Shown piece after piece: positions 35,312 through 55,366 of a stretch of 64,000 nucleotides of DNA. The stretch's first letter is position 1; each line of letters opens with the position of its first letter. Origin of the DNA: Spirochaetota bacterium (lineage in GTDB: Bacteria > Spirochaetota > UBA4802 > UBA5550); NCBI GenBank assembly GCA_041753395.1, contig JBGSUQ010000029.1:20482-84481 (forward strand), read 5' to 3'. The position numbers and the translations under genes are program-made. A model generated the notes under the pieces. That model was not told the origin of the DNA, ran no database searches, and saw only the letters and a list, made by a program, of their open reading frames with translations.

Positions 35312-35313
35312 TA

Positions 35314-37562: not shown

Positions 37563-38411
37563 TCACTGCGGCATGACAGCAATTCTACCGTTGACTCGAA
37601 GCTGAACAACATCCATTTTTCCTCCCCTGCGGCAGGCAAGCACCGCCGCCCCCAGGGCGCCCATGACCTGTGGGTCGACAGCAAGGGGCGCGATCTCAAT
37701 CCTGAGCAGGTCACCGAGGGCCTTCATGAGGCCGGCATTCTTGGCACACCCCCCCGTGACAGTAAGTTTTTCCCTGATGCCGATGCGCTTAAGGAGCGTG
37801 AAACAACGCTTGGCAACCGCGGATTGAATGCCGGCGGCCACGTCAGACGGCGGCTGCTTCTTCGCCAGGAGGCTAATCACTTCGCTTTCGGCAAAGACGC
37901 TGCACTGGGCCGTCACGGGAATCACCTTTCTGGCATTCAATGAGAGCCGCGAAAATTCGTCGAGATTCATCCTGAATACGCGGCTCATAGCCTCGAAAAA
38001 GCGGCCAGTCCCGGCGGCGCATTTATCGTTCATGGCGAATTCCAGCACGGACCCGTCCTCTGCGACTGATATCCCCTTCAGGTCCTGGCCGCCGATATCT
38101 ACAATTGTTTTTATCCCCGGATCACAGGAAAAAACACCCATGGCATGACAGCTGATTTCGGATATGTTTTCGTTGGCGAAGGGTACTTCATTCCTGCCAT
38201 AGCCGGTGCCCACCAGGTATGCCAGGTCTCCGCTCCCTTTCAGTTGATCAACCATGGAGCAGGCTCTCTCCATGACAATTCGCGAAGTCTCCTCCGGATC
38301 TATTTCCGAGGGTATGATGACCGAGGCAGCGATGGATCCGTTTTCATCGAGAATGACCGCCTTGCCGGTTGTTGAACCGATGTCGCATCCCCCGTAATAT
38401 TTTTTTCCCAT
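37563..38411 (-). CDS. ATP-dependent acyl-CoA dehydratase activase (HgdC/BcrAD family) #3
   Basis: DIGSTTGK, GTGYGR, EISCH, DIGGQD, NDKCAAGTGRF, CSVFAESEV. Confidence 0.93.
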   Translation of the reverse strand: MGKKYYGGCDIGSTTGKAVILDENGSIAASVIIPSEIDPEETSRIVMERACSMVDQLKGSGDLAYLVGTGYGRNEVPFANENISEISCHAMGVFSCDPGIKTIVDIGGQDLKGISVAEDGSVLEFAMNDKCAAGTGRFFEAMSRVFRMNLDEFSRLSLNARKVIPVTAQCSVFAESEVISLLAKKQPPSDVAAGIQSAVAKRCFTLLKRIGIREKLTVTGGCAKNAGLMKALGDLLRIEIAPLAVDPQVMGALGAAVLACRRGGKMDVVQLRVNGRIAVMPQ

Positions 38412-38459
38412 AAATGGTCTCCGTTGTAATAATAATTGCAATATTGGCTTTCATTATAG

Positions 38460-38523
38460 CCCCCAAAATCCCCCGGAGAGGGACTTTTTCAGCATTTTTC
38501 AACTACCTACCCCTCTGGGGGGG
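38460..38523. repeat. REP-like palindromic element, copy without insert
   Basis: CCCCCAAAATCCCCCGGAGAGGGACTTT...CCCCTCTGGGGGGG; similar to the copies at 48276 and 55382. Confidence 0.6.
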
Positions 38524-38524
38524 A

Positions 38525-39943: not shown

Positions 39944-39958
39944 AGTGTTTAACCCCGG

Positions 39959-41089
39959 TTATTTACCCATGCTTTCTATGAAGGCCTGCACGCGCGTGCG
40001 CAGCTGCCCCTCGCCGGCATGCCGGTATTCCCGCTCCAGGCGTAGAACCGGTATCCCGACGGACCGGAGTTCTGACGTAAGCGTGCTCCCTTCAACACCC
40101 CAGGTATCGCAGAATTTTATCGCCTGCAGAATGACACCGTCGGCGCGGTATTCCCGCGCCGTGTCCCGGATGGCCGCGGCGCGCTCGTCGAATTCATCCA
40201 TCATTCTGGGGCACAGGACCTTGAAAAGCGTGTGCTCCGCCACGGCCCGCAGGGGATTGCCGCTTTCCGATACCGGGTCCAGCCACGGAAGCGAACCGGT
40301 GCAGAATCGGTCAGCTACCACGAGGCCGCCCTGGGATTCTATGACATCTATGAACGACGGGTCATCCAGCTCGCCGCCGGCCACCATGATCCTGGCCCGG
40401 TACGGGCCGATCCCTCCCCGCTCAACCGCTTTCCGGTGAAAATCTTCAACCAGTGGCAGAAGAAGGTCCTTCGGAGTTACCATGGAAGCAATCATGATAC
40501 GATGAAATTCGCCTCCGGTAATGAGGGGCGGGTCCTGCTTTCTCAGGTCGCCGATGGATCGAAGAACACGCGCGAAGGCGTTGCGGCTGCGGATAGCTGC
40601 GGCGAGATCATCACCCGCCGCACTGACGCCGAAGTGCTCCGACAACTTTTCGGCGAGAACCGTCAGTTCTTCCGTAAACCAGTCAAGTGCCGGCTCGCCG
40701 CGCTTATGGGGAACGTCAAGAGTATGCAAGAAGGCAGGCTTGCGCAGATAGTCCAGGTTGTCCATCAGCCGGCGCATATGGTCGCAGTTGGCGGTGAACA
40801 CAATCCCGCCCAGGTTATCATAGGCGCCGCCAAGGGCGAACTCAAGAAGGCTCTTGGTATAGGAACAGATAACGTTTGACATGTACGTGTCCGCCAGCTC
40901 GGTACCGGCAATCCCGGGCGCTCGGAGACGTACCGGGAACAACCTGCCCGCCGAGAGCATTGTTTCCGGGACATAGCTGCAGGTGTACCCGACAGGGACG
41001 CGCCGCTCATCCCTTGCCTGCTCGGCAAGGCGGTTCAGCGGCTCAGCCAGAAGGTCGTCAAACAGTGAAAGATCTGCAGACTGCTTCAT
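39959..41089 (-). CDS. 2-hydroxyacyl-CoA dehydratase / BCR-family subunit (beta/BzdN-like) #2
   Basis: GYTCSYVPE, VICSYTK, NCDHMRR, DRFCTG, LCPRM, KFCD, GQLRTRVQAF; ATGA overlap with the CooC gene. Confidence 0.88.
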   Translation of the reverse strand: MKQSADLSLFDDLLAEPLNRLAEQARDERRVPVGYTCSYVPETMLSAGRLFPVRLRAPGIAGTELADTYMSNVICSYTKSLLEFALGGAYDNLGGIVFTANCDHMRRLMDNLDYLRKPAFLHTLDVPHKRGEPALDWFTEELTVLAEKLSEHFGVSAAGDDLAAAIRSRNAFARVLRSIGDLRKQDPPLITGGEFHRIMIASMVTPKDLLLPLVEDFHRKAVERGGIGPYRARIMVAGGELDDPSFIDVIESQGGLVVADRFCTGSLPWLDPVSESGNPLRAVAEHTLFKVLCPRMMDEFDERAAAIRDTAREYRADGVILQAIKFCDTWGVEGSTLTSELRSVGIPVLRLEREYRHAGEGQLRTRVQAFIESMGK

Positions 41090-41886
41090 GGCCTCACTCC
41101 TTCTGTAAATGCGTCTTCCGCGGCCGGCAGCAGGCCGAAGCACGAGATACATCGGCGCACGCCTGTCCGCGCAGGGCATTCCGGCAGGTCAAGTAAACTC
41201 CTTCCCTCGATGTCAAAGGCGCGTATATGGTCGTCTTCAGGCAGTGTGCCGAGAAGGGCCAATCCCGGCGGCGGTGTTATGCCGCGATTCTCTCCGGCGC
41301 GGACGCGGTTGACGATAAGGCCGCACCGCTCGTACCCGACCGATTCCCCGGCCACTTCCAGGATACTTCCCGCAACGGCAAGACCCTTGGCCGACTGGTC
41401 CGAAACAAGGAGCAGATGGCTCACCCGCTCCATAACGCGGCGGTTCACCTGCTCGATGCCGGCCTCCCCGTCTATAACAACGTAATTAAAATTGGATGAT
41501 ATCGATTCTATCACATCCTTTAAAAAATCGTTCACCTGGCAGTAACATCCTTCCTGCTCGGGCCTCCCGATGGCGAGGAAGGCCAGGTTCTTCTTCTCCT
41601 CCAGTGCGGCCAGCACCTCGTAATCAAGGGCCGACGCGAGCTGCTTCATATCCTCGCGGGCCCCTTCTTTCACCCTGGAAATCAGGTCGTTCCGAATGTC
41701 ATCAACGGTCCTCCGGGCCTGGAAGCCGAGGGCCAGGGCAAGGCCCACTGCCGGGTCCGCGTCGATGGCCAGTACTTTCTTCGAAGGATCTTCGGCAAGC
41801 ATGGAGGCCACGATGGCGCTGATGGAGGTCTTGCCCACCCCTCCCTTGCCGCAAACCGCGATGATGACCGTGTCAGTTTCTTTCAT
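41086..41886 (-). CDS. cooC: CooC/AcsF-type Ni-insertion ATPase
   Basis: GKGGVGKT, IDADP, GRPEQEGCYC, DGEAGIEQVNRR. Confidence 0.88.
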   Translation of the reverse strand: MKETDTVIIAVCGKGGVGKTSISAIVASMLAEDPSKKVLAIDADPAVGLALALGFQARRTVDDIRNDLISRVKEGAREDMKQLASALDYEVLAALEEKKNLAFLAIGRPEQEGCYCQVNDFLKDVIESISSNFNYVVIDGEAGIEQVNRRVMERVSHLLLVSDQSAKGLAVAGSILEVAGESVGYERCGLIVNRVRAGENRGITPPPGLALLGTLPEDDHIRAFDIEGRSLLDLPECPARTGVRRCISCFGLLPAAEDAFTEGVRP

Positions 41887-42622
41887 AGCCCGCCTTCTCC
41901 TTTCCGCGCATAGCGTCCCGCATCGACCTGAGCTCGGACACCTCGCCGCAGACGTCGGTAAAATCGCAGGTACCGCAGTCGAAGGACAGCTCCTTCGCCA
42001 TCTTGTTCATGGCGCCGATAAGCCGAACCGCCCGTTCGCCGACATGCTGCAGGGAGCGGACGTCCTCCGGGGACGATGTTACGATAAGCATCTCCACACC
42101 CCGCACATACTCCAGCTTCCGGTACCTTTCCATGAGCGCAGCGGCAAGCACTTCCAGGGAAAAGCCCTCCGCTATCGCCTGCCTGCTTATCCTGCTCCAT
42201 TCCCGCATGTACTGGGACACGGCCCGCATCATGTAGCCTTTAAGGTTCACGTCATAACGCGCCAGTTCGATCTCCCGGTGCCGGTCATAGCAATTGTTCT
42301 CGGTGAAACCGTCAACGTGAAGAATGACCGCCCTGCCCAGGGGAAGGCTGGCCCCGGCACTGACGGAAACATCCGGCCCGATGCGGGTGATCATTCCGTC
42401 CCGGACAAGGTCCGCATTCCCGGTCCAGACAAGAAATGACGCTGATTCGTCCCGGGGATTGCCGAGCTCAACAGCGGTATCGCATTTCAGCACGATGTTG
42501 CCCCGCTCACCCATGGGCCACGGCCGGTGAGCCGCGGCGATTTCGGCAAAGCCGCGGGGCGACACCTTCATCCCGTCCATCCAGGACCTGAGATCATGTA
42601 TGACTTCTTCAAACAATTTCAT
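41873..42622 (-). CDS. Truncated acetyl-CoA synthase (AcsB/CdhC) middle-domain homologue
   Basis: VELG..DGMITRIGPDV..LPLG..WSRISRQAIAEGFS..VEMLIVT..DCGTC....VC parallels AcsB DGKIEVIGPDI..LPLG..WLRVSKDAVAKGF..SCVLC..HVC (recalled sequence). Confidence 0.72.
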   Translation of the reverse strand: MKLFEEVIHDLRSWMDGMKVSPRGFAEIAAAHRPWPMGERGNIVLKCDTAVELGNPRDESASFLVWTGNADLVRDGMITRIGPDVSVSAGASLPLGRAVILHVDGFTENNCYDRHREIELARYDVNLKGYMMRAVSQYMREWSRISRQAIAEGFSLEVLAAALMERYRKLEYVRGVEMLIVTSSPEDVRSLQHVGERAVRLIGAMNKMAKELSFDCGTCDFTDVCGEVSELRSMRDAMRGKEKAGYERN

Positions 42623-42628
42623 TCAGCT

Positions 42629-43447
42629 CTACTCTACCAGGGCCCCTTCTTTCCGATGTTCCGTGGCAGGGGTGCCCCGCGCAGCATCCATCGCCATCAA
42701 GGCTGCTCCGATGGCGCCATTTATCTGGGGATTGTCTACCCTCAGGAGGTCTGTCCCAAGGGCGCTTTTAAGCGCCTCGAACATCCCCGCGTTCCTGGCA
42801 ACACCGCCCGTCATGACAATGTCCTTTTCAATCGTAATGCTTTTCGCCAGGGCCGCTGCCCTGTTGGCCACGGCATGATGAAGGGCGCGTATGATGTCGG
42901 AGATTTCGGCCCCATCGTTAACAAGGGATATGATCTCGGTCTCGGCAAAGACCACGCACTGGTTGGAGAGGGTTATCTTCTTCGCAGATTTCAACGAGAT
43001 ATCACCCAGGTCATCCAGTTTTATTTCTAGGGCCTCGGCTATGACTTCCAGAAACCTCCCGGTCCCGGAGGCGCACTTGTCGTTATAGATAAAGCGCGCA
43101 ACCGCGCCCGATGCGTCAACCTTGATGGCCTTGCAGTCCGGCCCGCCGATATCGATGACCGTTCTGGCCGTGGGCGCCTGCCATACCGCACCCCGGCCGT
43201 GGCACGCGATTTCCGATTCAACACTGTTGACGAAGGAGATATGCTTCCTTCCATATCCCGTGCCGACGCACCAGGATATATCTGTCATGGCCACGCCAGC
43301 ATTGTTCAGAGCCTGGTCCATCACCGCCCTGGCCGATTCCTCCGGCGACCGCTTCGCCAGGGCCATTGCAGATGCTACAATGCCATTTTCGTCAATAATG
43401 ACCGCTTTGGCGGTCAGAGAGCCAACATCGCATCCCGCAACAATCAT
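42629..43447 (-). CDS. Acyl-CoA dehydratase activase #2
   Basis: GCDVGSLTAK, GTGYGR, DIGGPDCK, NDKCASGTGRF, CVVFAETE; ATGA overlap with upstream gene. Confidence 0.92.
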   Translation of the reverse strand: MIVAGCDVGSLTAKAVIIDENGIVASAMALAKRSPEESARAVMDQALNNAGVAMTDISWCVGTGYGRKHISFVNSVESEIACHGRGAVWQAPTARTVIDIGGPDCKAIKVDASGAVARFIYNDKCASGTGRFLEVIAEALEIKLDDLGDISLKSAKKITLSNQCVVFAETEIISLVNDGAEISDIIRALHHAVANRAAALAKSITIEKDIVMTGGVARNAGMFEALKSALGTDLLRVDNPQINGAIGAALMAMDAARGTPATEHRKEGALVE

Positions 43448-44235
43448 GATTTTCCTCCTTGCGCCTTTTCCATCGCGATAAGGGCGGCGCCGATGGCGCC
43501 GGCGAGCTGCGGGTCCGCCCTGGTGACGCGCTTGATCCGGAGCCCCAGCAGTTTCTCCAGCGCCGAAACCACGCCGGCGTTCTTGGCCACGCCGCCGGTC
43601 ATGACCACGTCCCGCTCGAACCCGATGTTGTTGACGATAATAGACATGCGGCTGGCCATGGCGCTGTTGATGCCGGCCGCGATGTCCGCCACTGGGACCC
43701 CGCTGTTCAGGTACTGGATCACGTCCGCCTGGGCCCACACCGTGCAGGCCGACGCCAGGGTGATGGCATTCTTCGACAAGGCCGACAGCGCGCCGAGATC
43801 GCCAAGCTCCACATGGAGCACCTTTGCCATGACCTCGAGAAACCGGCCCGTGCCGGAAGCGCACTTGTCGTTGGCCGTAAACTTGATCATGTTCCCCTGC
43901 TCGTCAATGCGCATGGCCTTGCAGTCCTGCCCGCCGATGTCGATGACGGTCCGTGCCGACGGCACCAGCCACTGTGCGCCTTTGCCGTGGCAGGCTATCT
44001 CGGTCACCGCTTCCTGGACAAAGGATATCCTGTCGCGGCCGTACCCGGTCCCCACGCAGAAGCCTATATCCTGCATGGAAAGCCCGGTTTTGGAAAGGGC
44101 CTGGCCCATTGCCGCGTCCGCCGAATCACCCGGCCTCGCCTTCGATTTTATTATTACCGATTCGACCATCTTTCCATCTTTCATAATCACCGCTTTTGAC
44201 GTGAGAGACCCCACGTCGCATCCAGCCACCATCAT
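43444..44235 (-). CDS. Acyl-CoA dehydratase activase #1
   Basis: GCDVGSLTSK, GTGYGR, DIGGQDCK, NDKCASGTGRF, CTVWAQADV; ATGA overlap. Confidence 0.92.
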   Translation of the reverse strand: MMVAGCDVGSLTSKAVIMKDGKMVESVIIKSKARPGDSADAAMGQALSKTGLSMQDIGFCVGTGYGRDRISFVQEAVTEIACHGKGAQWLVPSARTVIDIGGQDCKAMRIDEQGNMIKFTANDKCASGTGRFLEVMAKVLHVELGDLGALSALSKNAITLASACTVWAQADVIQYLNSGVPVADIAAGINSAMASRMSIIVNNIGFERDVVMTGGVAKNAGVVSALEKLLGLRIKRVTRADPQLAGAIGAALIAMEKAQGGKS

Positions 44236-45641
44236 GGCAACAGCCTCCTTACCCGTAAAAATTCTTCCAGTCGGTCCTGTGAAGCCTCCCATGATTCTAC
44301 CCGGTCGTCAAAGGCGTCGCCGTACATGATGAATGTCGGGAACCCCGCCTGTTCCGTGTCCCGGGCCAGAAGCTTCACCATGCCCCAGGTGTTGCGGCAC
44401 CCCGGCGTGCCGTTGTATATGATGCAGTCGGCGCTGTACATCTTCGCCAGGGACAGCGTGTCCTGGAGCCACATGTCCGGCGCATCATAGGGCCCGCGGA
44501 TCGATTTGATCATGGGCATGCGCGAATTGTGATCGGCCATGGTCCTGATCATCGAGTCGAGATCCTTCATGTCGAAGGAGTACGCCGATGCCTCGGTGCG
44601 GTATTCCTTCACATGGGGCGCCGTTTTTGCCCAGGAGCGGCTGAGGATGTTCCCCTGGTAGCAGATGCCGTTTCTGTCCAGGAAATCCCAGAGCCTCAGT
44701 CCGTTCGTGTAGTGGTCGATATAGCAGAAAAAGGCACGCATCTTCTCTACGCCGCCGGTGAGGCCGGAAATACCCCTGGACGCGTTGTCGGACGCCACCT
44801 TGAGCATCGACTCCAGCACCACCGTGCACTCCTTCATGCCCGAGAAAAGGAATCGCGTTGCGTACAGCATCATGTTGAAGGTCACCGGAAGCGGATTGGG
44901 CACGATTCGGGCAAGGTCTTCCAGCTCCGCCACGATCTCCTCCTGCTTCTCGATCTCGCGAAGCACCACCCGAAGCTTGTCAATATCAAGCTTTCTCCCG
45001 GTGTTCTTTTCAATAAAGGCTATGAGGGCCTTGAAATCAGAATTATGGTATTTGTCGGTCCTGGGGTCCACCAGTACCGGCGGCATGTCGAGTGAAAAAA
45101 ACGGCTTCTTGAGATACGCCGCGGCGAAGGCGAAGGCGTTGGCGTTGGTATCACATACGCCGGGGGTATCGGTCAGGACCATGTCCACTTCAGCGCCCAG
45201 GCCGGCAAGAAACGCCCCGAGGGTTCCGCGCTGCGATGAGCATGACGTCTCCGTGTATCCCACCTCATTGCAGTAGTCCAGGAATTCCGCTGTTCCCCGT
45301 TTGTACGCAAAGGTCTGGGCGACCGAAACAACCTCAAGGCAAATCGGATAAACGTCCATGGCATAGAGTATGCCCGGGGAAAAACAGAACGTTGTTATGG
45401 CATTATGAAAACCCCTGTCCCGGGCCGTTATGTAATTCTCAAAATATTTCGTTATGCATTCAAGGAACAGCTGGCCCGGTTCCCCCGCATCAAGCACCGC
45501 TGTGACAGTGCCGTTGAAATAGGGAATATATTTCAGCATGGTCCGGAATTCCTTCTCGGAGCCGTTTCTCAGTTTCGCTGCAGCAGCGAATGTGGTCCAG
45601 AGCATCGAATCAAACTTGTATTCCTTTAATTCAGGTCTCAT
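44232..45641 (-). CDS. 2-hydroxyacyl-CoA dehydratase / BCR-family subunit (alpha/BzdO-like) #1
   Basis: ETSCSSQRG, PGVCD, FSLDMP, PGCRN, DAFDDR. Confidence 0.85.
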   Translation of the reverse strand: MRPELKEYKFDSMLWTTFAAAAKLRNGSEKEFRTMLKYIPYFNGTVTAVLDAGEPGQLFLECITKYFENYITARDRGFHNAITTFCFSPGILYAMDVYPICLEVVSVAQTFAYKRGTAEFLDYCNEVGYTETSCSSQRGTLGAFLAGLGAEVDMVLTDTPGVCDTNANAFAFAAAYLKKPFFSLDMPPVLVDPRTDKYHNSDFKALIAFIEKNTGRKLDIDKLRVVLREIEKQEEIVAELEDLARIVPNPLPVTFNMMLYATRFLFSGMKECTVVLESMLKVASDNASRGISGLTGGVEKMRAFFCYIDHYTNGLRLWDFLDRNGICYQGNILSRSWAKTAPHVKEYRTEASAYSFDMKDLDSMIRTMADHNSRMPMIKSIRGPYDAPDMWLQDTLSLAKMYSADCIIYNGTPGCRNTWGMVKLLARDTEQAGFPTFIMYGDAFDDRVESWEASQDRLEEFLRVRRLLP

Positions 45642-46789
45642 GCCGTTTTCCTCCTCTGCCCGATCCGCTCAAGAAACGCATCCACCCGCATTTTCAACCG
45701 GCCCGTTTCAACCAGGGGCCCATATTCGCGCTCGATTTTCAGGCAAGGTATGCCGGCCTCCTCGAGGTCGCGCTCAAAGAGTCCGTTCTCCGAACCATGA
45801 AGGTCGCAGAAGCGGATATTCTGCAAAATTACACCATCTATTTTAGCCTTTTCAGCCTTATCGGTAAGCATCTTCAGCCGGCCCGCATATTCGCCGTACA
45901 TGCGCGGACACTCGTTTTTGGCAAGGTACCGCATCGCTAGAGCCTGGATCGGCTCGTCCATCTCATCAACACGGTCAACATGGAAACGCGATCCGAAACA
46001 GAGGTTGTCAGCCACCACAATGGCCCTCTCCCCCTCGATCAATCGAATCAGGTTAACGTCATCGCTGGCGCTGCCCACGAGCATGAGTCGCACTTTGCCC
46101 TGCATCTCACCCTTGCTTTTTTGCATGTTGCCGATCAGGCCTTCCAGCAATTCGACATACACGTCGCGGGGCATCGTGGTCCCCGCGAGAATCACCGCCA
46201 GGGCCTCAGTCCCCGTTATTGCTGGTTTGTCGGCAATTCTCAGCCTGTCAAATTGCTCAAGGAGGTCGCGGCTTTTATTAAAGAGCTGTATTGTTTCCCG
46301 CAGCTTATCCTCATTAATTGAAACGCCAAAATGGCCCTCGACCGCCACTTTCAGCCGGAGGATCTCGTCGATAAACCATTTCACGGTGTAATCCGCGAAT
46401 TTGTGGGGCACGCCGAAATGAAAGAAGAACTTCGGTAGTACCCCAGTGATGTCTCCCCCAGCCTTGCGCCAGCACTCGTCGAGCCGCCGCATCGAATCGC
46501 ATCCCGGCGTGATGATGGCCCCGTCGAGAAAATCGAATTTGCCCTCGCCCGCCAGCTGCAGCATCGCCTTCGGAAGGCTGCAGATGAAGGGGCCGAAATA
46601 GGTGTCGCCTATGGTCGCCTCTGTCGCGCCGAACCCCCGAATACGGTACGGCAGGATCCCGGCCGCGTACAGGAGCTCGTCCGGAACGTACGAGCAGGTG
46701 TAACCCACCACTTTTTTACCGGCTTGCTTCCACTCACGGACATAGTCGTTATTGAGCGAGATTGCCGCTTCCATAAAAACAGTGTTCAT
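45638..46789 (-). CDS. 2-hydroxyacyl-CoA dehydratase / BCR-family subunit (beta/BzdN-like) #1
   Basis: GYTCSYVPDE, FICSLPK, GCDSMRR, DNLCFG, ECPRM, RFCD, GRLKMRVDAF; ATGA overlaps at both ends. Confidence 0.88.
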   Translation of the reverse strand: MNTVFMEAAISLNNDYVREWKQAGKKVVGYTCSYVPDELLYAAGILPYRIRGFGATEATIGDTYFGPFICSLPKAMLQLAGEGKFDFLDGAIITPGCDSMRRLDECWRKAGGDITGVLPKFFFHFGVPHKFADYTVKWFIDEILRLKVAVEGHFGVSINEDKLRETIQLFNKSRDLLEQFDRLRIADKPAITGTEALAVILAGTTMPRDVYVELLEGLIGNMQKSKGEMQGKVRLMLVGSASDDVNLIRLIEGERAIVVADNLCFGSRFHVDRVDEMDEPIQALAMRYLAKNECPRMYGEYAGRLKMLTDKAEKAKIDGVILQNIRFCDLHGSENGLFERDLEEAGIPCLKIEREYGPLVETGRLKMRVDAFLERIGQRRKTA

Positions 46790-48273: not shown

Positions 48274-48275
48274 AG

Positions 48276-48398: not shown

Positions 48399-49742
48399 TC
48401 AATGTTCGACTGCGTAGGCCGGCTGTTTCGCCCTGGAAGCGCCCTGCTTTTCCGCTGCAAGGTGTTTCGCGAGACGCTTGCCCAGGCAGACCAGGGTCAA
48501 TACCGGCGGAAGTCCGAAGGGCTCGGGAACGACCGAGCAGTCGCACACGTACAGGTTTTCGTATCCTTTCAACTTGAGATTGGAATCAAGCATGTGGCCA
48601 ATTCGTATTGTCCCGCCCGGGTGCGCCGCCAGTTTCCAGGTCTTGTAGATCCCCGTGGCGCCGGCATTGAGGAGTATGTTCTTCGCCATGTCGTAGCCCT
48701 TCCGGAGCTTTTCCCTGTCGGCGGGCGTAAGTCGTTTCCGCACCCCGCCGCGGTCCGAGAGATGCCCTGATAGATCGTCCCGTATTTTGATCATGATGCG
48801 CAGGGTCTTCCTGGTTTCAAGGAGCCTCCAGAAGCGGAAGGCCGAGATTGTGAAGGCCTGATCGAGTAAAAAAGGAACCGCCATGTCGGTCATCACAATC
48901 CCCTCGTTACGCATGACGCAGCCGGCAGTCATGGGGATCTCGTCTTTCCTTTTTTTCACGTTCTTGACCTTTCCGCAAACGGTGATGAGGGGATCGAAGA
49001 AATAGTTATACCCGGCGTTCCGTATCCCTGATTTGCGCAGTACCACCGGCGACCCAATGCCGCCGGCTGCCACGATCACCGTTTTGGCCATCACCTGCAA
49101 GGTGCGCCCCTTGTATTTCATTTCAACGCCAGTTGCTTTCCTGTTTTCGAAGAGTATCTTTTTTACCTTCGCCTTATTCAGCAGCACCGCACCCCGCGTG
49201 ACGGCCTCGTCAACGTGCATCTTGGCGCTCCACTTCACCTCATGGCGGTCGCCGTAATAACCGAAGCCGTACCCCGGGCGCCAGCGGTCCTGGTACATAA
49301 ACTTGTCGAGCTTTTTCCAGTCATACCCGAGGGCACGGGCACTTTCCATCATGCTCCTGGCCATCGGAGTCACCATTTCATCTTTAAGGGGTGCTATAGG
49401 GAGCTCCTTGCGAACCTCCTTTTCAGCCTCGGTCAGGTCAATGCCGTATTTCTTGAAAGCTTCATGGGCCACCGGGAATGCAGTCCCATAATAAAACACC
49501 GAGCTGCCGCCTGTGGTGAGACCGCGCACCATGCCGAGGAGCTCCGGCGTCAGCAGCAGGCTTTTAAAGGGAAACATCATGTAGGGCAGCGCCCAGAGAA
49601 AGGTCCCCTTTATCTTATTTCCGCCACTCCCTTCGAGGATGAGGACTTTTTTGCCTTTAGCGGCCAGGTCCCTGGCAACGCTTGCTCCCCCGGCGCCGGA
49701 CCCGACAACAATAACGTCATACTTCTCTTTCATTATCTCCAT
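48399..49742 (-). CDS. GMC-family FAD oxidoreductase
   Basis: VVGSGAGG, GGSS, AAGGIGSP, AHPGGT, NLYVCDCSV.P..G.PP.LT; GGAGG RBS. Confidence 0.9.
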   Translation of the reverse strand: MEIMKEKYDVIVVGSGAGGASVARDLAAKGKKVLILEGSGGNKIKGTFLWALPYMMFPFKSLLLTPELLGMVRGLTTGGSSVFYYGTAFPVAHEAFKKYGIDLTEAEKEVRKELPIAPLKDEMVTPMARSMMESARALGYDWKKLDKFMYQDRWRPGYGFGYYGDRHEVKWSAKMHVDEAVTRGAVLLNKAKVKKILFENRKATGVEMKYKGRTLQVMAKTVIVAAGGIGSPVVLRKSGIRNAGYNYFFDPLITVCGKVKNVKKRKDEIPMTAGCVMRNEGIVMTDMAVPFLLDQAFTISAFRFWRLLETRKTLRIMIKIRDDLSGHLSDRGGVRKRLTPADREKLRKGYDMAKNILLNAGATGIYKTWKLAAHPGGTIRIGHMLDSNLKLKGYENLYVCDCSVVPEPFGLPPVLTLVCLGKRLAKHLAAEKQGASRAKQPAYAVEH

Positions 49743-50087: not shown

Positions 50088-51170
50088 CTACTTGTTCGTA
50101 TTTCTTCTATAACGGGCTGGTGATATGCCGATGAATTTGGTAAAGGCTTCATAAAATGCTGATTTGCTGTTAAAACCCACTGAATAGCAGATAGATGTTA
50201 TGGAACGATCCGGCTGGGTCTGCATGAGGTTGACCGCCTCATCCACGCGGTACCGGTTTATATAATAATTAAAACTGATACTCAGGTGTTTATTCAGGAA
50301 TTCCGACAGCTGGTGGGGCGATATGGAAAGCATGTCTGCAAGGCGCTTCAGGTTAAGGTCTTCGTCGCAATAGACTTTCTCCACCTTCATGAGATCGTCA
50401 AGGCGGCTCTTCATGGCCTCCACATCCAGGCCCTTGATCAGGGAGCGTTCGTATATATTCTTTCTGACCACGCTGGTGATAAGCTCGATCAGTTCGGGTT
50501 TGAGGTTTCCCACAAGAAATATGAACAAGAACGGGAATATCATAAGGATCATGATAATGCGCCCCAGGGTAATATTACGTGAAATAAAGGCGTACAGCAA
50601 TAGAATCGCGATAAGGAGTACCATAACAATGAATACCAGTGCTACCTGGTTGACTTTAACACTGAACTTCCTCTTTATCAGTGATATAAAATCCTCTTTA
50701 ATCAGAATGTATATATTATATATGATGAATATTATCGCGGCGGACATCATATAATAATAATTACCGGCAATAATAAATAAGCGTAATTCATGCCATGGAC
50801 CGCTCTCCGTCGAAGCCGTCAGGTACATGAAAATATCGATACAGGAGGATATACAGGCAGGCAGCAGGTGAAAGGCGTGCCTGAAACCGATAGTAAAATC
50901 CTTATAAAACAGCTTTTTATAGAAAAAGAAGATGGAAGGGCCCAGTAAAAACGCCACTGCCTGGCCACGCCAGAGTGACAATTCATGGTTCGGGACAGCA
51001 TACACACCTAAATAATACTGCTGAAACCCTATTAAGGAAATGCAGGAAAAAAAAATGAACAGCCAGATGTGTTTGCTGTCATGGAATATTTGCGAGAACT
51101 GGGCAATGGCCATGGTCAGGGCAAGGCTGCCGCCGAAAAAGAGCAGATGATTTAAAATTGTATCCACCAT
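50088..51170 (-). CDS. Membrane-anchored AraC-family regulator
   Basis: TM N-terminus (LLGPSIFF, HLLP); DEDLNL, PHQLSEFLN, INRYRVDEA, VGFNSKSAFY. Confidence 0.92.
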   Translation of the reverse strand: MVDTILNHLLFFGGSLALTMAIAQFSQIFHDSKHIWLFIFFSCISLIGFQQYYLGVYAVPNHELSLWRGQAVAFLLGPSIFFFYKKLFYKDFTIGFRHAFHLLPACISSCIDIFMYLTASTESGPWHELRLFIIAGNYYYMMSAAIIFIIYNIYILIKEDFISLIKRKFSVKVNQVALVFIVMVLLIAILLLYAFISRNITLGRIIMILMIFPFLFIFLVGNLKPELIELITSVVRKNIYERSLIKGLDVEAMKSRLDDLMKVEKVYCDEDLNLKRLADMLSISPHQLSEFLNKHLSISFNYYINRYRVDEAVNLMQTQPDRSITSICYSVGFNSKSAFYEAFTKFIGISPARYRRNTNK

Positions 51171-51542: not shown

Positions 51543-52487
51543 ATGAATAACCGTGCATTGAAATATAGCTGGATAATCATTTTTCTTTTATCGCTGTGCC
51601 TTTCCTGTTCTCTCAACAGGACTGCCATGAAAATGGTGGCCGATACCCTTTCGTCTACAACATCGGGCACGACCTTCACCGGTGAGGATGACCCTGAATT
51701 GGTGGGAGACGCCCTCCCCTTCGCCCTCAAACTCTTCGAGAGCCTGCTCGAAGGGGTAACGGACAATCCACAGCTCTACCTGGCCACGGGTAGCGGATTC
51801 ATCATGTACGCCAACGCCTATGTGCAGACGCCGGCTGACATGCTTCCCGACACGGATGTTGATAAAAAAAGCCAGATGGTTTCACGGGCGCGGAAGCTCT
51901 ATCTCCGGGGTCGGGACTACGTTCTTCAGGGTATCGAGGTCATCTACCCGGGATTTACCGCCTCGCTGGATAACGACACCTTCAAGGCGCGACTCGAGGG
52001 CATGAAATCCGATGACGTGCCCTTTCTCTACTGGACCGCCGCAGGCTGGATGGCCGCGTACGCCGCGGACCCCTTTGACGTAAGCATCGGCGTGGGCGTG
52101 AAAAAGGCGGCCGCAATGATGGAAACCGCCCTGCGCCTGAACGAATCGTACAGCAACGGCGCCATCCATGACTTTTTTATCTCATATTATGGTTCGCTAC
52201 CGCAGTCAATGGGCGGGAGCGAGGCAAAGGCGCGGCATCATTTCAAGAAGGCCGTGGAGCTGTCAAAGGGCCTCACCGCTTCGCCTTACGTGGCCCTGGC
52301 ATCGACGGTATCGGTCAGCAACCAGAACATACAGGAATTCACCGAGCTGCTCAACAAGGCACTGGCTATTGACGTATCAAAAAAGACCGGGAACCGCCTT
52401 GCCAACATAATCGCCCAGCGAAAGGCGCAATGGCTCCTGGACCACAGGGACGACCGGTTCCTCTCAGACACGAAAGAAGGAGAATAG
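51543..52487 (+). CDS. TRAP-T/TPAT TatT component (TPR-like lipoprotein)
   Basis: Lipobox CLSC; EDDPELVGDALPFALK, YANAYV, LYWTAAGW, GG....ARHHF, NIIAQRKAQWLL. Confidence 0.88.
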   Translation: MNNRALKYSWIIIFLLSLCLSCSLNRTAMKMVADTLSSTTSGTTFTGEDDPELVGDALPFALKLFESLLEGVTDNPQLYLATGSGFIMYANAYVQTPADMLPDTDVDKKSQMVSRARKLYLRGRDYVLQGIEVIYPGFTASLDNDTFKARLEGMKSDDVPFLYWTAAGWMAAYAADPFDVSIGVGVKKAAAMMETALRLNESYSNGAIHDFFISYYGSLPQSMGGSEAKARHHFKKAVELSKGLTASPYVALASTVSVSNQNIQEFTELLNKALAIDVSKKTGNRLANIIAQRKAQWLLDHRDDRFLSDTKEGE

Positions 52488-52490
52488 AAA

Positions 52491-53486
52491 ATGAAACATA
52501 TCATAAAAGGCTTTCTAACACTCATCATGGCCGCTGCCATATCGATGCCGGTATTTTCCCTCACCATCAAGGTTGGTAGCATCGCCCCTACCGGTTCACC
52601 GTGGGACAAGGCACTTAAAAAGATCGCCGCTGAATGGAAGACTATTTCCGGCGGCACAATCGACATGAAGATATACCCGGGCGGCATCGTCGGCAACGAG
52701 CCTGACATGATCCGTAAAATGCGCATCGGCCAGCTTCAGGCCGCCATCTTCACCGGTATGGGAATGAGCTACATCTCGCCGGAGGTCTTCTCCCTCAGCC
52801 TCGCCTTCCTGGTAAGGAACGACGAGGAGCTCGATTTTTTAATGAAAAAAACCAAGCCGCACTTCAACAGGCTCATGGAAAAAAAGGGTTTCGTGGCGCT
52901 GGTCTGGTCCAAGGCGGGCTGGGTCAATTTCTTTTCCACAAAGCCCGTCATATACCCGCGCGATCTGAAACCCCTCAAGCTGTCTGTCGCTGAGGGGGAT
53001 GCCGAAATCCTTCAGTCATGGCGCGTCATGGGCTACAACGCCATCCCTCTGTCAACAAACGACCTGATGACCTCGCTGCAGAACGGGATGATCGAAGCCT
53101 TCTACGCCCCCCCGCTGGTGACCGCCTCCTTCCAGTGGTTCGGCATCGCCAGGCATATGTGCGCCATCAGGATTGCCCCGATGATTGGCGGGCTCGTTAT
53201 CACCCAAAAAACCTGGGAACAGGTACCTGCGGAAATAAGGCCGAAGCTTGTAAACTCCGCCCAGAAAATTGTTGACAACCTGTACATAGAAACGAATGCT
53301 CTCGAAAAAAAGGCAATCGACACGATGCTCAAGCACGGCCTGAAGATCCATGACGTTCCTCCCGAAGCGACAAAACTCTGGCAGAAGGAAGGGCTCAAAG
53401 GCTATGACACATATGTGGGGAAGACCTTTTCCAAGGACCTCCTGAAGCAATTGCAGGACTATGTGAAAGAATACCGTAATAAATAA
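52491..53486 (+). CDS. dctP: TRAP substrate-binding protein DctP (TatP)
   Basis: IKVGSIAPTGSPW, IYPGGIVGNE..MIRKMRIGQLQ, SLQNGMIEA. Confidence 0.92.
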   Translation: MKHIIKGFLTLIMAAAISMPVFSLTIKVGSIAPTGSPWDKALKKIAAEWKTISGGTIDMKIYPGGIVGNEPDMIRKMRIGQLQAAIFTGMGMSYISPEVFSLSLAFLVRNDEELDFLMKKTKPHFNRLMEKKGFVALVWSKAGWVNFFSTKPVIYPRDLKPLKLSVAEGDAEILQSWRVMGYNAIPLSTNDLMTSLQNGMIEAFYAPPLVTASFQWFGIARHMCAIRIAPMIGGLVITQKTWEQVPAEIRPKLVNSAQKIVDNLYIETNALEKKAIDTMLKHGLKIHDVPPEATKLWQKEGLKGYDTYVGKTFSKDLLKQLQDYVKEYRNK

Positions 53487-55366
53487 TGATACTGAAAAAA
53501 ATCACCTCTCTTCTAAGCAGGGCGGAGAATTATATTGCCTTTGCAACGCTCATATTGCTTGCCCTCATTCCGGTACTTGAGGTTATCGCACGGAAACTGT
53601 TAAAAACGGGCATACCGAATTCCAGCGACTACCTCCAGCACCTCGTCCTGTGGCTGACCTTTATCGGTGGCATGATCACGTCGCGGGAGCGCAAACACCT
53701 GTCACTGGCAGCGGGGGTCGCCGCGATCAAGGAGCCGGTCCGAAAATGGATACTCGCGGTAACAGGCGCCGTATCAACCGCCATCTGTTCCGCTTTTGCC
53801 TGGTCTTCACTTTCGATGGTACTAATAGGGTTCGATCCCGCCAAGCAGATCGGCCTGTTCCCCATCAGGCTCGTCACGGCCATCATGCCGATAGGTTACG
53901 CCGTCATGTGTGTCCGCTTTGTGACAACGGCCCCGACGCACCGGGCGGGCAAAATAATTATTGCCCTTGGCATCCTGGTTGGAACCTTTTTCTCATTCCC
54001 GCAGATAGGCAACATCATCGTGTCATTTTTCCCCGATGCCGCCGCCACAACTGACATTATTGCGCAAACATCCCATTCCCTGGTTGCGACCCTGTCGCTC
54101 CCGATAATCATACTGCTGATCGCGGCGGCCTTTTTCGACACCCCGGTCTTTATCGTTCTGGGGGGACTGGCATACCTCTTCTTTATCCGTTCCGGTGGCC
54201 AGCTCGAGGTCATCCCAAATGAGGCCTACACGATGCTCATCAGCAGTCCGCTGCCGGCAATACCGCTCTTCGCCTTCGCCGGTCTCATACTCTCGGAAAG
54301 CAAGGCCGGCGAACGTCTCATCGAGCTCTTCAAGGCCCTTCTCGGCTGGCTCCCGGGCGGCATGGCCATCGTGGTGGTCATGGTATGCGCCTTTTTCACC
54401 ACCTTCACGGGCGCGTCCGGGGTCACCATCCTGGCACTGGGCGGGCTTCTGTACGTGATTCTGACGCAAAGCGGCGGGTACAAAGAGAATTTTACAACAG
54501 GACTCCTCACCGCGTCGGGAAGCATCGGCCTGCTGTTCCCCCCGAGCCTGCCGGTGATCCTCTACGGCGTAGTCGCCCAGATAAGCATCAAGCAGATGTA
54601 CGCCGGCGGCATCATCCCGGGTGTATTCATGATAGTCGCACTTTCGATTATGGGAATCATCGCGGCGGTCCGCGGCAAGATACCCCGGGTCCCCTTTCAC
54701 GGGAGGGGGGCCTTAACGGCAATACGGAAATCCATATGGGAACTCCTCCTGCCGGTCATGATATTTGCAGGGTTCTTCTCCGGCCTTACGACGCTGGTGG
54801 AGATCGGCGCCATCACGGTTGTATACTCCCTGTTTATAACCATGGTGGCCCACCGTGACCTGCGCATCCGCGACCTCCCGGGGGTCATGCTCAAGTGCCT
54901 GCCGATAATCGGCGGCATCCTTGTCATCCTTGCCCTGGCAAAGGGGCTTTCTTATTACATAGTCGATGCGGAAATCCCGCAAAACCTAGCGCAGTGGATT
55001 CAGGCGCACATTCATTCAAAGATCGTGTTCCTGATCCTGCTCAATATCGCCCTTCTCATAACCGGTTGTTTTCTCGATATTTATTCAGCAATTCTGGTAG
55101 TGGTCCCCCTCATCATACCCCTGGGAGAAATTTTCCAAATCCATCCGGTCCACCTGGGTATCATCTTCCTCGCCAATCTTGAACTCGGATACCTGACACC
55201 GCCGGTGGGCCTGAACCTCTACCTGTCATCATATCTGTTCAACAAGCCACTGGTGAACATCTACCGGTATGTGCTGCCTTTCCTGCTGCTGCTTCTGGTG
55301 ACCGTCATTGTCATCACCTACGTGCCCTGGATGTCAACAGCCCTGATAGATCTGGTGGGAGAATAG
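53486..55366 (+). CDS. dctM: TRAP transporter fused small/large permease DctQM
   Basis: DctQ-like N-terminus; AIPLF, TGASGVTI, GSIGLLFPPS, ELGYLTPPVGLNL. Confidence 0.92.
   Translation: MILKKITSLLSRAENYIAFATLILLALIPVLEVIARKLLKTGIPNSSDYLQHLVLWLTFIGGMITSRERKHLSLAAGVAAIKEPVRKWILAVTGAVSTAICSAFAWSSLSMVLIGFDPAKQIGLFPIRLVTAIMPIGYAVMCVRFVTTAPTHRAGKIIIALGILVGTFFSFPQIGNIIVSFFPDAAATTDIIAQTSHSLVATLSLPIIILLIAAAFFDTPVFIVLGGLAYLFFIRSGGQLEVIPNEAYTMLISSPLPAIPLFAFAGLILSESKAGERLIELFKALLGWLPGGMAIVVVMVCAFFTTFTGASGVTILALGGLLYVILTQSGGYKENFTTGLLTASGSIGLLFPPSLPVILYGVVAQISIKQMYAGGIIPGVFMIVALSIMGIIAAVRGKIPRVPFHGRGALTAIRKSIWELLLPVMIFAGFFSGLTTLVEIGAITVVYSLFITMVAHRDLRIRDLPGVMLKCLPIIGGILVILALAKGLSYYIVDAEIPQNLAQWIQAHIHSKIVFLILLNIALLITGCFLDIYSAILVVVPLIIPLGEIFQIHPVHLGIIFLANLELGYLTPPVGLNLYLSSYLFNKPLVNIYRYVLPFLLLLLVTVIVITYVPWMSTALIDLVGE

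Follow-up and report, generated by a model that had tools for sequence, protein, structure and literature searches.

The window analysed here is a 64,000-nucleotide stretch of a Spirochaetota genome. It contains an 11-gene, translationally coupled operon that encodes a GMC flavoprotein, a helical protein, a BzdNOPQ-like four-subunit reductase, a 249-aa protein paired with a CooC-family ATPase, and a second HAD-type enzyme with its activase (Table 1). Four-nucleotide overlaps chain the genes from that of the helical protein through HadB2, the two genes of the pair share 14 nt, and the stop codon of the ATPase gene overlaps the ATG of the next HGD-D gene at 41089 (ATGA), with a GAAGGAG ribosome-binding site ahead. 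The earlier note on this DNA had described the overlaps on both sides of the ATPase gene as well as its GKGGVGKT and GCYC motifs, which we find as CGKGGVGKT and EGCYCQ.

Table 1. Genes of the operon and two context features, with positions in the window.
Feature	Position	Strand	Remarks
Divergent TRAP transporter (TAtT, DctP, fused DctQM; context)	51543..55366	+	TAtT 305, DctP 144, DctM 267 bits
AraC-type regulator, directly upstream of the operon (context)	50088..51170	-	Pfam HTH_18 72.6 bits
GMC-type FAD oxidoreductase	48399..49742	-	ORF to 49883, likely start 49742; GMC_oxred_N 70, GMC_oxred_C 42 bits
All-helical protein, 495 aa	46786..48273	-	Co-conserved with the enzyme; no Pfam or NCBIfam match
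BzdN-like subunit (HGD-D)	45638..46789	-	ORF to 46834, likely start 46789 (4-nt overlap with upstream stop)
BzdO-like active-site subunit, 469 aa	44232..45641	-	PDB BzdO 8s02_A, E 8e-10
BcrAD/HgdC-type ATPase 1 (BzdQ/P-like)	43444..44235	-	ORF to 44292, likely start 44235
BcrAD/HgdC-type ATPase 2	42629..43447	-	Likely start 43447; listed ORF to 43864 over-extended
ACS-fragment protein ("mini-ACS"), 249 aa	41873..42622	-	AcsB A2 (middle) domain, linker helix, C216-x2-C219-x5-C225
CooC-family P-loop ATPase, 266 aa	41086..41886	-	Deviant Walker A (K14), C114-Y-C116, clade-specific invariant C12
HadB2, second HGD-D beta-type subunit	39959..41089	-	ORF to 41179, likely start 41089 (ATGA with CooC stop)
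HadA2, second HGD-D alpha-type subunit, 472 aa	38525..39943	-	Pfam HGD-D 192.9 bits
Third BcrAD/HgdC-type activase	37563..38411	-	ORF to 38441; Pfam BcrAD_BadFG 175.5 bits

The BzdN-like subunit matches PDB BzdN (8s02_B) with an E-value of 1.3e-42 and the six cysteines of the [8Fe-9S] cluster of BzdN (36/73/100/263/293/327) all align to cysteines in it; the BzdO-like subunit keeps Cys95/128/380 and Glu65 and has an Asn (motif GVCDTN) at the position of the catalytic His131 of BzdO, the ligands of the [8Fe-9S] and active-site clusters being those given in the BzdNO work (PMC11971306). Since all six BzdN cysteines, the three BzdO cysteines and Glu65 are kept, the core should be a redox enzyme that needs low-potential electrons. 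Both HgdC-type ATPases have an AAGGAGG ribosome-binding site: ATPase 1 (BcrAD_BadFG 190 bits, TIGR00241 241 bits) starts in an ATGA overlap, and the BcrAD_BadFG match of ATPase 2 (191 bits) begins at residue 144 of the long ORF, for which ATG 43447 is the likely start. The operon has the same four kinds of subunits as class I benzoyl-CoA reductases (BCRs) of the Bzd type (BzdNOPQ; 8s02), with an N/O core and two distinct HgdC-type ATPases, but it lacks the ferredoxin, CoA ligase and dienoyl-CoA pathway genes of Bzd/Mbd-type systems and carries four genes that are not known to have been described with BCRs and encode the GMC flavoprotein, the 495-aa helical protein, the ACS fragment and its CooC-type ATPase. 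The bzdN and bzdO equivalog cut-offs were not reached (158.7 versus 453.8 and 46.2 versus 448.6).

HadB2, HadA2 and one activase reproduce the three-component layout of 2-hydroxyacyl-CoA dehydratases with an HgdC-type activator (HadBC/HadI, 3o3m; the double-cubane cluster protein, PDB 6eno, was included in this comparison), although there is no CoA-transferase gene here and scores stay under all equivalog cut-offs. HadB2 scored 288.6 bits against Pfam HGD-D and 171 bits against the double-cubane model, the latter under its cut-off, and HadB1 also matches 3o3m_B (E 1.7e-40). The GMC protein is only remotely similar to GMC enzymes of solved structure (best E 1.3e-10), and the 495-aa protein, which has no Pfam or NCBIfam match, is predicted to be helical throughout (AF2 pLDDT 81.6; best Foldseek PDB match at E 0.98). 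No CxxCxxCxxxC ferredoxin motif was found in window positions 36001-51500, and neither the operon genes nor the recurrent neighbour families revealed a CoA ligase or transferase. Elsewhere in the window lies an AMP-binding CoA ligase gene (22061-23890). A terminator-like hairpin is found near the third activase gene (37465-37448), such sites being no more frequent than by chance in this region.

A homologue of the AcsB A2 domain

The 249-aa protein is a homologue of the A2 domain of AcsB, as the earlier note had proposed by eye from a resemblance to the AcsB middle domain. It matches Pfam CdhC (PF03598) over residues 41-182 with 41.7 bits (cut-off 24) and positions 307-456 of the 705 in the bacterial ACS model of NCBIfam, while missing the equivalog cut-offs of NF040764 (37.6 versus 800) and TIGR00316 (31.6 versus 355.95). 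All 15 PDB sequence matches at E ≤ 1 were ACS chains, covered over residues ~328-479. When its AF2 model (pLDDT 86) was compared with the PDB using Foldseek, 19 of 19 among the matches listed to rank 23 were ACS (E 5e-11 to 2e-6), every listed match at E ≤ 0.001 being an ACS, and the next match after this set had an E-value of 0.17. The 249-aa start is the right one, since the N-terminal M1 and F4 are conserved among the close homologues. The part of AcsB/CdhC (1oao, 7zkj, 6ytt, 9c0s) that it resembles consists of the A2 domain and the start of A3, with ~176-200 aligned columns (best Foldseek E 5e-11, TMq up to 0.60), the same order of strand, helix and C-x2-C-x(n)-C, and the Trp of the AcsB W-x-R-[IV]-S motif. 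Unlike AcsB, it has no A1 domain and no linkage to CODH, CFeSP or folate genes, and it is present in genomes without ACS.

The tail of the protein reads C216-G-T-C219-x5-C225 and is followed by 24 residues without any further Cys, whereas that of the genome's own AcsB reads C-x2-C-x8-C-x9-C and continues into a large C-terminal domain. In an alignment of the two, the Cys triad occupies the position of the AcsB C-x2-C-x8-C behind the same strand and helix, with a spacing of x5 instead of x8. C216, C219 and C225 are invariant in 121/121 close homologues, and the tail was found in 127 of 130 distant representatives, including one fused to a ferredoxin domain (P0110), and missing from two (128, 129 and 128 of 131 aligned rows by position). 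Cys111 is less constant (90/121 close homologues) and is not conserved across the wider family. The fragment lacks the fourth cubane Cys of the A-cluster and all of A3, the domain with the Cys-Gly-Cys nickel site: the protein stops at residue 249 and its alignment to AcsB ends near AcsB residue 479. This is the ending described in the earlier note.

A preprint on the ACS of C. autoethanogenum (bioRxiv 10.1101/2024.08.05.606187) describes Arg383 and His386 as acetyl-transfer residues and Trp405 as stacking on adenine. The spacing of Arg (-22), His (-19) and Gly (-6) relative to this Trp is matched exactly by the genome's own AcsB. In the fragment, Trp142 aligns with Trp405, and Arg383 and His386 correspond to Ile118 and Ala121, as judged from one pairwise alignment. 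On this retained A2 surface R133 and R144 are invariant (Arg144 in 127/131 distant rows) and Trp142 is mostly conserved, being found in 121/121 close homologues and 105/131 distant rows, with Gln or Asn in its place in 17 of the latter. An identity as acetyl-CoA synthase was rejected on account of the missing A3/Cys-Gly-Cys domain, fourth cubane Cys and Arg383/His386 equivalents, so that the label "mini acetyl-CoA synthase" of the earlier note overstates what the protein is.

A CooC-family ATPase on its own branch

CooC/AcsF proteins are the nickel-insertion ATPases of CODH and ACS. The best PDB match of the 266-aa ATPase is CooC1 (3kje; SIMIBI class) with an E-value of 1.1e-13, and C114-Y-C116 aligns with the CYC motif of that protein. 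Both this motif and the deviant Walker A G13-K14-G-G-x-G-K19-T20, including its signature Lys, are invariant in 45/45 ATPase orthologues and are shared with CooC/AcsF; the extra Cys ahead of the P-loop, C12, is also invariant in the orthologues and sets them apart from that family. A phylogeny of the kind suggested in the earlier note placed the ATPases adjacent to the fragment apart from acs-linked CooC genes (75 versus 9 sequences, SH-aLRT 88), and the ATPase is 35% and 33% identical to the two CooC genes on the acs-bearing contig of the same genome.

A complex of two ATPase chains and one ACS fragment was predicted with an ipSAE of 0.59 (runs 0.59, 0.63 and 0.55), while the best of three controls reached 0.00; at least 44% of contacts were common to the runs and the partner pLDDT was at least 78. 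In the calibration of the tool, the mark was reached by 58/80 solved complexes and 2/110 mismatched pairs, and scores ≤ 0.60 comprised seven of the 80 solved complexes together with both mismatches, so that this prediction counts as weak support for a complex by the tool's own verdict.

Recurrence of the pair and independence from CODH/ACS

The fragment belongs to a family of 226 representatives (50% identity, E ≤ 1e-30), with relatives in 182 species-level genomes. We surveyed 80 related loci from Spirochaetota, Desulfobacterales, Smithella and Bacillota. The ATPase gene adjoins that of the fragment in 68/75 loci, and in the other seven the fragment is kept without an adjacent ATPase gene. 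All components of the upstream four-subunit enzyme are encoded in 57/61 loci, and those of the second enzyme set in only 31/57. The pair therefore travels mainly with the upstream enzyme and less with the dehydratase-like gene that the ATPase gene overlaps here, and the second enzyme set is dispensable for it. Where sufficient upstream DNA was available, the 495-aa helical protein was present in 50/53 loci and the GMC protein in 37/53. Considering that the cysteines are invariant in 121/121 homologues and that the synteny recurs in 80 loci, the arrangement is not due to chance.

Electron-transfer genes adjoin the pair in a minority of loci. The CxxCxxCxxxC motif occurs in the fetched flanks of only 17/80 loci. 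A ~390-aa Fer4 protein is found in 21 copies at 20 loci, 13 of them directly upstream of the fragment gene; at two Smithella-type loci a flavodoxin-ferredoxin fusion (Pfam; L075) or a similar two-motif frame lies behind the ATPase gene; and P0110, a single representative, carries a 2x[4Fe-4S] ferredoxin domain as a fusion.

The host genome carries a complete acs cluster on another contig (C8: AcsV, CooC, FolD, AcsD, CODH, AcsB, AcsC). That contig bears the single CODH match of the genome (PF03063) as well as both strong CdhD/CFeSP matches (PF03599, 319 and 170 bits), and two weak CdhD matches are on contigs C25 and C17. A profile search of the genome returned neither family on the contig of the window (C29), which bears out the earlier note that the window contains no CODH or CFeSP gene. 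In a 401-genome sample of the phylum, full AcsB is missing from 16/35 carrier genomes, and none of five such genomes tested (97-99% complete) has a CODH above cut-off; neither CODH nor ACS is thus present there as a client of the ATPase. In all five, the ATPase is encoded beside the ACS fragment or its enzyme, and HGD-D and activase genes of three architectures stand beside the pair. The linkage to HAD/BCR-family genes expected in the earlier note therefore holds across the survey, and its description of an Fe-S or Ni-Fe-S module that has been repurposed to serve HAD/BCR-type enzymes stands, each of the refuting conditions named in that note having been put to the test and none having applied. 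To our knowledge, ACS and its CooC/AcsF chaperones have been regarded as Wood-Ljungdahl machinery only, and we found no paper describing a pair of an ACS fragment and a CooC-type ATPase. Here, both have been taken over as a constant accessory by ATP-driven BCR/2-hydroxyacyl-CoA-dehydratase-type enzymes in several phyla, including organisms without CODH or ACS.

Possible roles of the pair

Our preferred reading, to which we give a probability of roughly 0.4, is that the ACS fragment serves the reductase as an Fe-S partner or as the subunit where electrons enter, and that its own CooC-type ATPase loads it. The 249-aa protein would be an AcsB A2 domain that came to stand alone, retaining the first three A-cluster cubane cysteines, and most likely binds an Fe-S cluster, our guess for its type being a [4Fe-4S] cluster bound by three Cys together with a fourth ligand that is not a Cys or comes from a partner. 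The overlapping ATPase would be the cognate P-loop metallochaperone, in a relationship inherited from the AcsF/AcsB pair, and would load or complete the Fe-S centre in an ATP-dependent and dimer-dependent step. We infer that the upstream BzdNOPQ-like ATP-driven reductase then uses the loaded fragment as its dedicated redox partner or as a fifth subunit, through which electrons reach either the pair of HgdC-type ATPases or the core, as they do through a small ferredoxin in known class I BCRs; the retained A2 surface (R133/R144, Trp142) may dock CoA or a protein partner. Several features sit less well with such a role: a conserved A2 domain of 190 residues exceeds what one expects of a simple electron carrier, no more than three Cys are conserved, and the ATPase hints at something odder, since a plain [4Fe-4S] carrier would need no CooC-type ATPase. 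If the pair supplies electrons, the most reducing enzymes known in biology would have a new class of donor; if it instead inserts nickel or builds a new cluster, the metal chemistry of this superfamily of enzymes would have to be seen differently. In both cases, the pair would mark a widespread anaerobic pathway in Spirochaetota of digesters and sediments, sulfate reducers and Smithella.

One of two main rivals, rather unlikely in our estimation, is that the ATPase and the fragment form a maturation pair, a system of scaffold and chaperone that assembles a special metallocluster (an Fe-S variant, possibly with Ni) or inserts it into the HGD-D-type core, neither protein being part of the working enzyme. 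NifEN, a paralogue of its target enzyme that acts as an assembly scaffold, offers an analogy, and we know of CooC/AcsF proteins only as maturation ATPases. Such a role would also suit the invariant ATPase motifs, the position of both genes inside a structural operon, as is frequent for accessory genes, the three architectures of HGD-D enzymes that are accompanied, as by a general helper, and a His-rich membrane protein encoded directly behind the ATPase gene at one of the 80 loci (L063). However, BzdNO was made by its authors in E. coli with its [8Fe-9S] and [4Fe-4S] clusters, and the word "maturation" does not occur in the text of their paper (PMC11971306); the known clusters of the family therefore seem to need no dedicated pair, and the core here keeps the same ligands as BzdNO. 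A redox partner accords better with the ferredoxin fusion and the neighbouring electron-transfer genes, and the seven loci that keep the fragment without an adjacent ATPase gene suggest that the fragment itself is the final functional product and not a helper.

We consider improbable the other main rival, that the fragment is a catalytic Ni-Fe-S/CoA site, in which the ATPase would load Ni at the cubane-bridging Cys219 and CoA would be bound through the A2 surface for thioester or carbonyl chemistry, that is, acyl-CoA formation, thiolysis or decarbonylation in an operon without CoA ligase or transferase. CooC-type partners are Ni chaperones, and Trp142 with its aligned adenine-stacking counterpart, Arg144 and the lack of activating genes among the operon genes and recurrent neighbours all point this way. 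Against it stand the absence of the Cys-Gly-Cys site with the rest of A3, the Ile and Ala at the acetyl-transfer positions and the Gln or Asn at Trp142 in some distant rows; a CoA ligase gene does exist elsewhere in the window, so activation may simply be encoded apart. With similarly little confidence, one may envisage a BCR/HAD-type subgroup with a nickel-containing or non-standard Fe-S site that is built on the ACS fragment by the AcsF-like ATPase, the fragment binding the CoA moiety of the substrate and playing a direct role in thioester/carbonyl chemistry or in the gated delivery of electrons. It would be the first case in which the metallocentre machinery of ACS/AcsF is reused by a system other than the Wood-Ljungdahl pathway.

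Because class I BCR-type enzymes consume ATP, it would be useful to control the reductase, and a conserved surface of the ligand-binding type next to a labile three-Cys site is typical of sensors; it is nevertheless very improbable that the fragment senses redox state or CoA/acyl-CoA levels and gates the ATP-consuming reductase together with the ATPase, since Pfam returned no DNA-binding or signalling domain in it, the strict pairing with a metallochaperone-type ATPase would be left unexplained, and related operons carry separate AraC, TetR or GntR regulators.

The acetyl-CoA synthase-like fragment

The earlier note had described a short AcsB-like protein and a CooC-like ATPase encoded by overlapping genes, and both genes were found as claimed (hereafter the fragment and the ATPase, together the pair), with an overlap of 14 nt and with the motifs CGKGGVGKT and EGCYCQ that had been reported for the ATPase. 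The sole Pfam match of the fragment is CdhC (41.7 bits for a cut-off of 24, residues 41-182), and it matches positions 307-456 of the 705-position NCBIfam model of bacterial ACS, with a score of 37.6 versus a cut-off of 800. When PDB sequences were searched with the fragment, all 15 matches at E <= 1 were ACS chains, spanning about residues 328-479 of a 730-residue ACS or residues 14-160 of an archaeal beta subunit. Its AlphaFold2 model, built with 43 homologues, was of low confidence in the Cys tail only (mean pLDDT 86, pTM 0.82), and Foldseek gave 23 PDB matches to this model at E <= 0.001, all those listed being ACS (E 5e-11 to 2e-6, TMq 0.45-0.60); the first match beyond the ACS group had an E of 0.17.

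The AcsB of the same genome (742-residue frame, for a gene of ~734 aa) served as comparison partner: the two proteins have in common the order of the last A2 strand, a long helix and a Cys motif. This motif is C-x2-C-x8-C-x9-C in AcsB, followed by ~200 more residues, whereas it is C216-x2-C219-x5-C225 in the fragment, which ends 24 residues further on. Given this shared order and this shortened motif, the fragment is an A2 domain followed by three of the cubane cysteines, the first ones, from the A-cluster region. The same alignment bore out the proposal that it has neither the fourth Cys nor the nickel-binding domain, the part of AcsB that it lacks being the one with the Cys-Gly-Cys nickel site.

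A word-index search identified 235 relatives, 136-436 aa in length, which their sources call either "hypothetical protein" or "CO dehydrogenase/acetyl-CoA synthase beta subunit", and C216, C219 and C225 are kept in 121/121 sequences when the best 120 are aligned with the window protein. When 1.84 billion representatives were searched with a profile, 726 proteins matched at E <= 0.001, of which 530 passed E <= 1e-10 and 226 passed E <= 1e-30; the top 150 are 130-308 aa long, mostly 230-270. The C-x2-C-x5-C motif lies within the last 70 residues in 126 of the 130 representatives with a length of 225 aa or more; among the remaining four, one is apparently frameshifted, two have no motif and one, P0110 (308 aa), has it further in and is the single representative in which a C-terminal 2x[4Fe-4S] ferredoxin domain is fused to the fragment. 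In an alignment of the distant set (131 rows), Cys occupies the three tail positions in 128, 129 and 128 rows, and Arg144, Arg133 and Trp142 are found in 127, 119 and 105 rows, respectively. A screen of 3182 candidates with lengths of 437-2000 aa gave no longer or fused form at E <= 1e-10, which is weak evidence. Cys111 was considered as a fourth cluster ligand and rejected: it is a Cys in 90/121 close homologues (Ser in 22, Thr in 5), and the position is not conserved in the wider family, where Ala is the commonest residue (34/131) and no compensating Cys is seen.

The operon and its relatives

Eleven tightly packed genes that include the pair form a single translationally coupled operon, with start codons picked by ribosome-binding sites. 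Overlaps of 4 nt join the genes for the helical protein and the BzdN-like subunit, the BzdN-like and BzdO-like subunits, the BzdO-like subunit and ATPase 1, ATPases 1 and 2, and the CooC-like ATPase and HadB2; in the last case, the TGA of the ATPase gene lies in an ATGA with the HadB2 start ATG at 41089, itself preceded by GAAGGAG. The gap between ATPase 2 and the fragment gene is 6 nt. Upstream of the operon come the gene of an AraC regulator and a TRAP transporter in divergent orientation, and a hairpin resembling a terminator follows its last gene, in a region where such sites are not above chance (14 found, 14.4 expected). Five sequencing runs from two studies are listed, all recorded as DNA and none as RNA, and four of them contain part or all of window positions 39959-46834 (two only a small share), the fifth containing next to none; one of the runs may be the source.

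Features of the window and of related loci (window positions unless a contig or locus is named)
Feature	Coordinates	Strand	Related loci with feature	Remarks
Eleven-gene operon	37563-49883	-		
Fragment	41873-42622	-		249 aa
ATPase, adjoining fragment gene	41086-41886	-	68/75	266 aa
Complete four-subunit set, upstream			57/61	
Helical protein	46786-48273	-	50/53	495 aa; no Pfam/NCBIfam family; model pLDDT 81.6
GMC flavoprotein			37/53	
Second enzyme set, downstream			31/57	
365-aa protein, then 7TM-GAF histidine kinase	34214-37455	+		
Stand-alone HGD-D protein	28126-29397	+		390 bits
B12-binding radical SAM protein	29925-31277	+		
Another AraC regulator	31303-32391	-		near stand-alone HGD-D protein
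ADP-forming acyl-CoA synthetase-like protein	19361-20848			
AraC regulator	20845-22026			
AMP-binding CoA ligase	22061-23890	-		
Second cluster of the same genome	C22:99518-105635 (L090:3519-9636)			HGD-D beta (HadB), HGD-D alpha (HadA), activase, GMC flavoprotein, fragment paralogue, CooC-type gene
Fer4 protein, examples	L052:8681-9997; L054:7262-8578; L067:8656-9849			
His-rich membrane protein, Deltaproteobacteria MAG	L063:11589-12317	+		

Upstream of the pair, a 398-aa protein matches BzdN (8s02_B, E 1.3e-42) and a 469-aa protein matches BzdO (E 8e-10), the BzdO-like gene being followed by two distinct BcrAD/HgdC-type ATPases. According to the cluster ligands listed in PMC11971306, each of the six BzdN cysteines that bind the [8Fe-9S] cluster has a Cys counterpart in the BzdN-like subunit, and the three cysteines and Glu65 of BzdO are kept in the BzdO-like subunit, whereas His131 is replaced by Asn. 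This four-subunit layout is that of a Bzd-type class I reductase, but every equivalog score is far under its cut-off. A second HAD-type set with three components lies downstream of the pair and a divergent GMC flavoprotein is encoded upstream in the operon. The 495-aa helical protein, whose model consists of helices throughout, had no fold match in the PDB (best E 0.98) and only unnamed clusters in the Atlas; its gene is conserved together with those of the four-subunit enzyme.

A pattern scan, run on a single genome from each species, turned up 182 stretches that code for a relative, of which the best 80, from Spirochaetota/Leptospirales, Desulfobacterales, Desulfosudis oleivorans, Smithella and Bacillota, were fetched. 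Every ORF of these 80 loci was searched by phmmer with the eleven proteins of the window, counts being limited to loci with sufficient flanking DNA (table). Since the complete four-subunit set is present in 57/61 loci and the second set in 31/57, the pair belongs first of all with the four-subunit enzyme. TetR and GntR regulators are recurrent neighbours, and genes for acyl-CoA dehydrogenase, enoyl-CoA hydratase, SDR and aldehyde:ferredoxin oxidoreductase occur in a few loci. A ~390-aa Fer4 protein recurs 21 times across 20 loci, and 13 of these copies lie immediately upstream of the fragment gene; a flavodoxin-ferredoxin fusion (Pfam on locus L075), or a similar frame with two motifs, follows the ATPase gene in two Smithella-type loci. 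These Fer4 proteins (~390-440 aa) combine a 2x[4Fe-4S] domain with a C-x-C-C-x-C-C-C motif and have no Pfam match beyond the Fer4 part; the 13 adjoining copies come from 12 loci, mostly of Desulfobacterales.

When 401 genomes of the phylum were searched for CdhC, 76 had a match. Matches fell into two classes, strong (165-237 bits, frames of at least 453 aa) and weak (27-61 bits, frames of 237-367 aa), and the weak, fragment-type match occurred, with two short contig-end pieces excluded, in 35 genomes, 19 with a full AcsB and 16 without (83-99% complete). The CODH model was searched in five of these 16 genomes (97-99% complete, two of them single-contig) and none had a match above the cut-off (best 30 versus 478 bits). 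All five encode both members of the pair next to genes for HGD-D proteins and activases, so that the linkage to HAD genes proposed for genomes without CODH/ACS held in each genome tested. Three layouts were seen: that of the window, HadA-HadB-ATPase-ATPase-fragment-CooC, and a five-gene CooC-HadB-HadA-activase-fragment order. Separately, at least 15 Spirochaetota genomes have their CdhC match in frames of ~1064-1186 aa (e.g. G343:C24, G296:C15, G313:C3, G164:C8), compared with ~740 in the window's genus, which points to an AcsB that is joined to a further large domain.

On another contig of the window's genome, a second, smaller cluster (table) encodes a fragment paralogue that is 48% identical to the window fragment. 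Its CooC-type gene ends after ~59 residues with no remainder downstream, and the same cluster in a related MAG has a full-length ATPase.

The ATPase and possible roles of the pair

The closest solved relative of the ATPase is CooC1 (3kje, E 1.1e-13), followed by MinD proteins at ~1e-8, and its C-Y-C aligns to that of CooC1. Among 45 orthologues from related loci, no variation is seen in the Walker A and its signature Lys, in C114-x-C116 or in an additional Cys12 ahead of the P-loop. Two other CooC-family genes of the genome, both on contig C8, show 35% and 33% identity to it, one of them sitting in a complete acs cluster (AcsV, CooC, FolD, AcsD, CODH, AcsB, AcsC). A quick maximum-likelihood tree of 75 fragment-adjacent ATPases and nine other CooC-family genes from six Spirochaetota genomes, labelled by gene context rather than by named CooC1, CooC2 or AcsF references, separated all 75 from the nine by a branch with SH-aLRT 88, several rows being long-branched.

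Complex prediction for two copies of the ATPase and one of the fragment, every chain being given as an alignment, yielded an ipSAE of 0.59 (runs 0.59, 0.63 and 0.55), graded as weak support: the calibration mark is reached by 58/80 solved complexes and 2/110 mismatched pairs, and scores of 0.60 or less come from only 7/80 solved complexes and from both mismatches. None of three controls scored above 0.00, and the runs had at least 44% of contacts in common, with a partner pLDDT of at least 78. Because AcsF loads AcsB, because the fragment keeps an AcsF-like neighbour and because of this weak complex signal, the fragment is likely a client of the ATPase.

Our tentative reading, with a probability of about 0.4, is that the fragment serves as redox partner of the four-subunit reductase, because the operon has no ferredoxin gene, one fragment homologue is ferredoxin-fused, electron-transfer genes adjoin the pair in some lineages and the reductase core needs very low-potential electrons. 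The classical ferredoxin motif was not found in window positions 36001-51500, and it lies within the fetched flanks of only 17/80 loci. However, an ordinary [4Fe-4S] protein requires no CooC-type ATPase, and a conserved A2 domain of this size points to a more specialised task, both of which argue against a redox partner; that the pair acts as a maturase is an alternative that we consider somewhat unlikely. The GMC flavoprotein was rejected as a general electron source for the fragment, its gene being present in 37/53 loci and missing from the five-gene operons.

A catalytic Ni-Fe-S/CoA site on the fragment is improbable. According to a study of the C. autoethanogenum ACS (bioRxiv 10.1101/2024.08.05.606187), acetyl-CoA sits mostly on A2, with the adenine stacked by Trp405, the diphosphate faced by a Lys/Arg patch, and Arg383, His386 and Gly399 near the acetyl group. 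The AcsB of the window's genome has R-x2-H-x12-G-x5-W at the exact offsets of the residues named there; its Trp aligns with Trp142 of the fragment, where the Arg383 and His386 positions become Ile118 and Ala121. On this one pairwise alignment, the fragment would thus keep the nucleotide-stacking Trp and the following Arg, not the acetyl-transfer residues. As for nickel-related neighbours, only three His-rich ORFs were seen across the 80 loci, too few to support Ni. A sensor function of the fragment is very improbable.

In one locus whose layout matches the Smithella loci, one of these three His-rich ORFs, a membrane protein with a weak DsbD_2 match (27.9 bits), is encoded directly after the CooC-type gene; in this single case, it may be a metal transporter.

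Full-text searches of the literature, covering main texts, turned up no description of the fragment family, of the pair or of the operon. In passages of PMC13056359 and PMC13370988, "CooC-like" and "CdhC-like" refer to CODH operons and full ACS. Every component comes from a known family, and the combination is new among BCR/HAD enzyme systems.

Elsewhere in the window, a family-less 365-aa protein and a histidine kinase without an adjoining response regulator are encoded by a gene pair that converges on the operon end, and a stand-alone HGD-D protein without an adjoining activase precedes a B12-binding radical SAM protein. The acyl-CoA synthetase-like protein and the CoA ligase (table) might supply CoA esters for the operon, though their genes lie 14 kb off.
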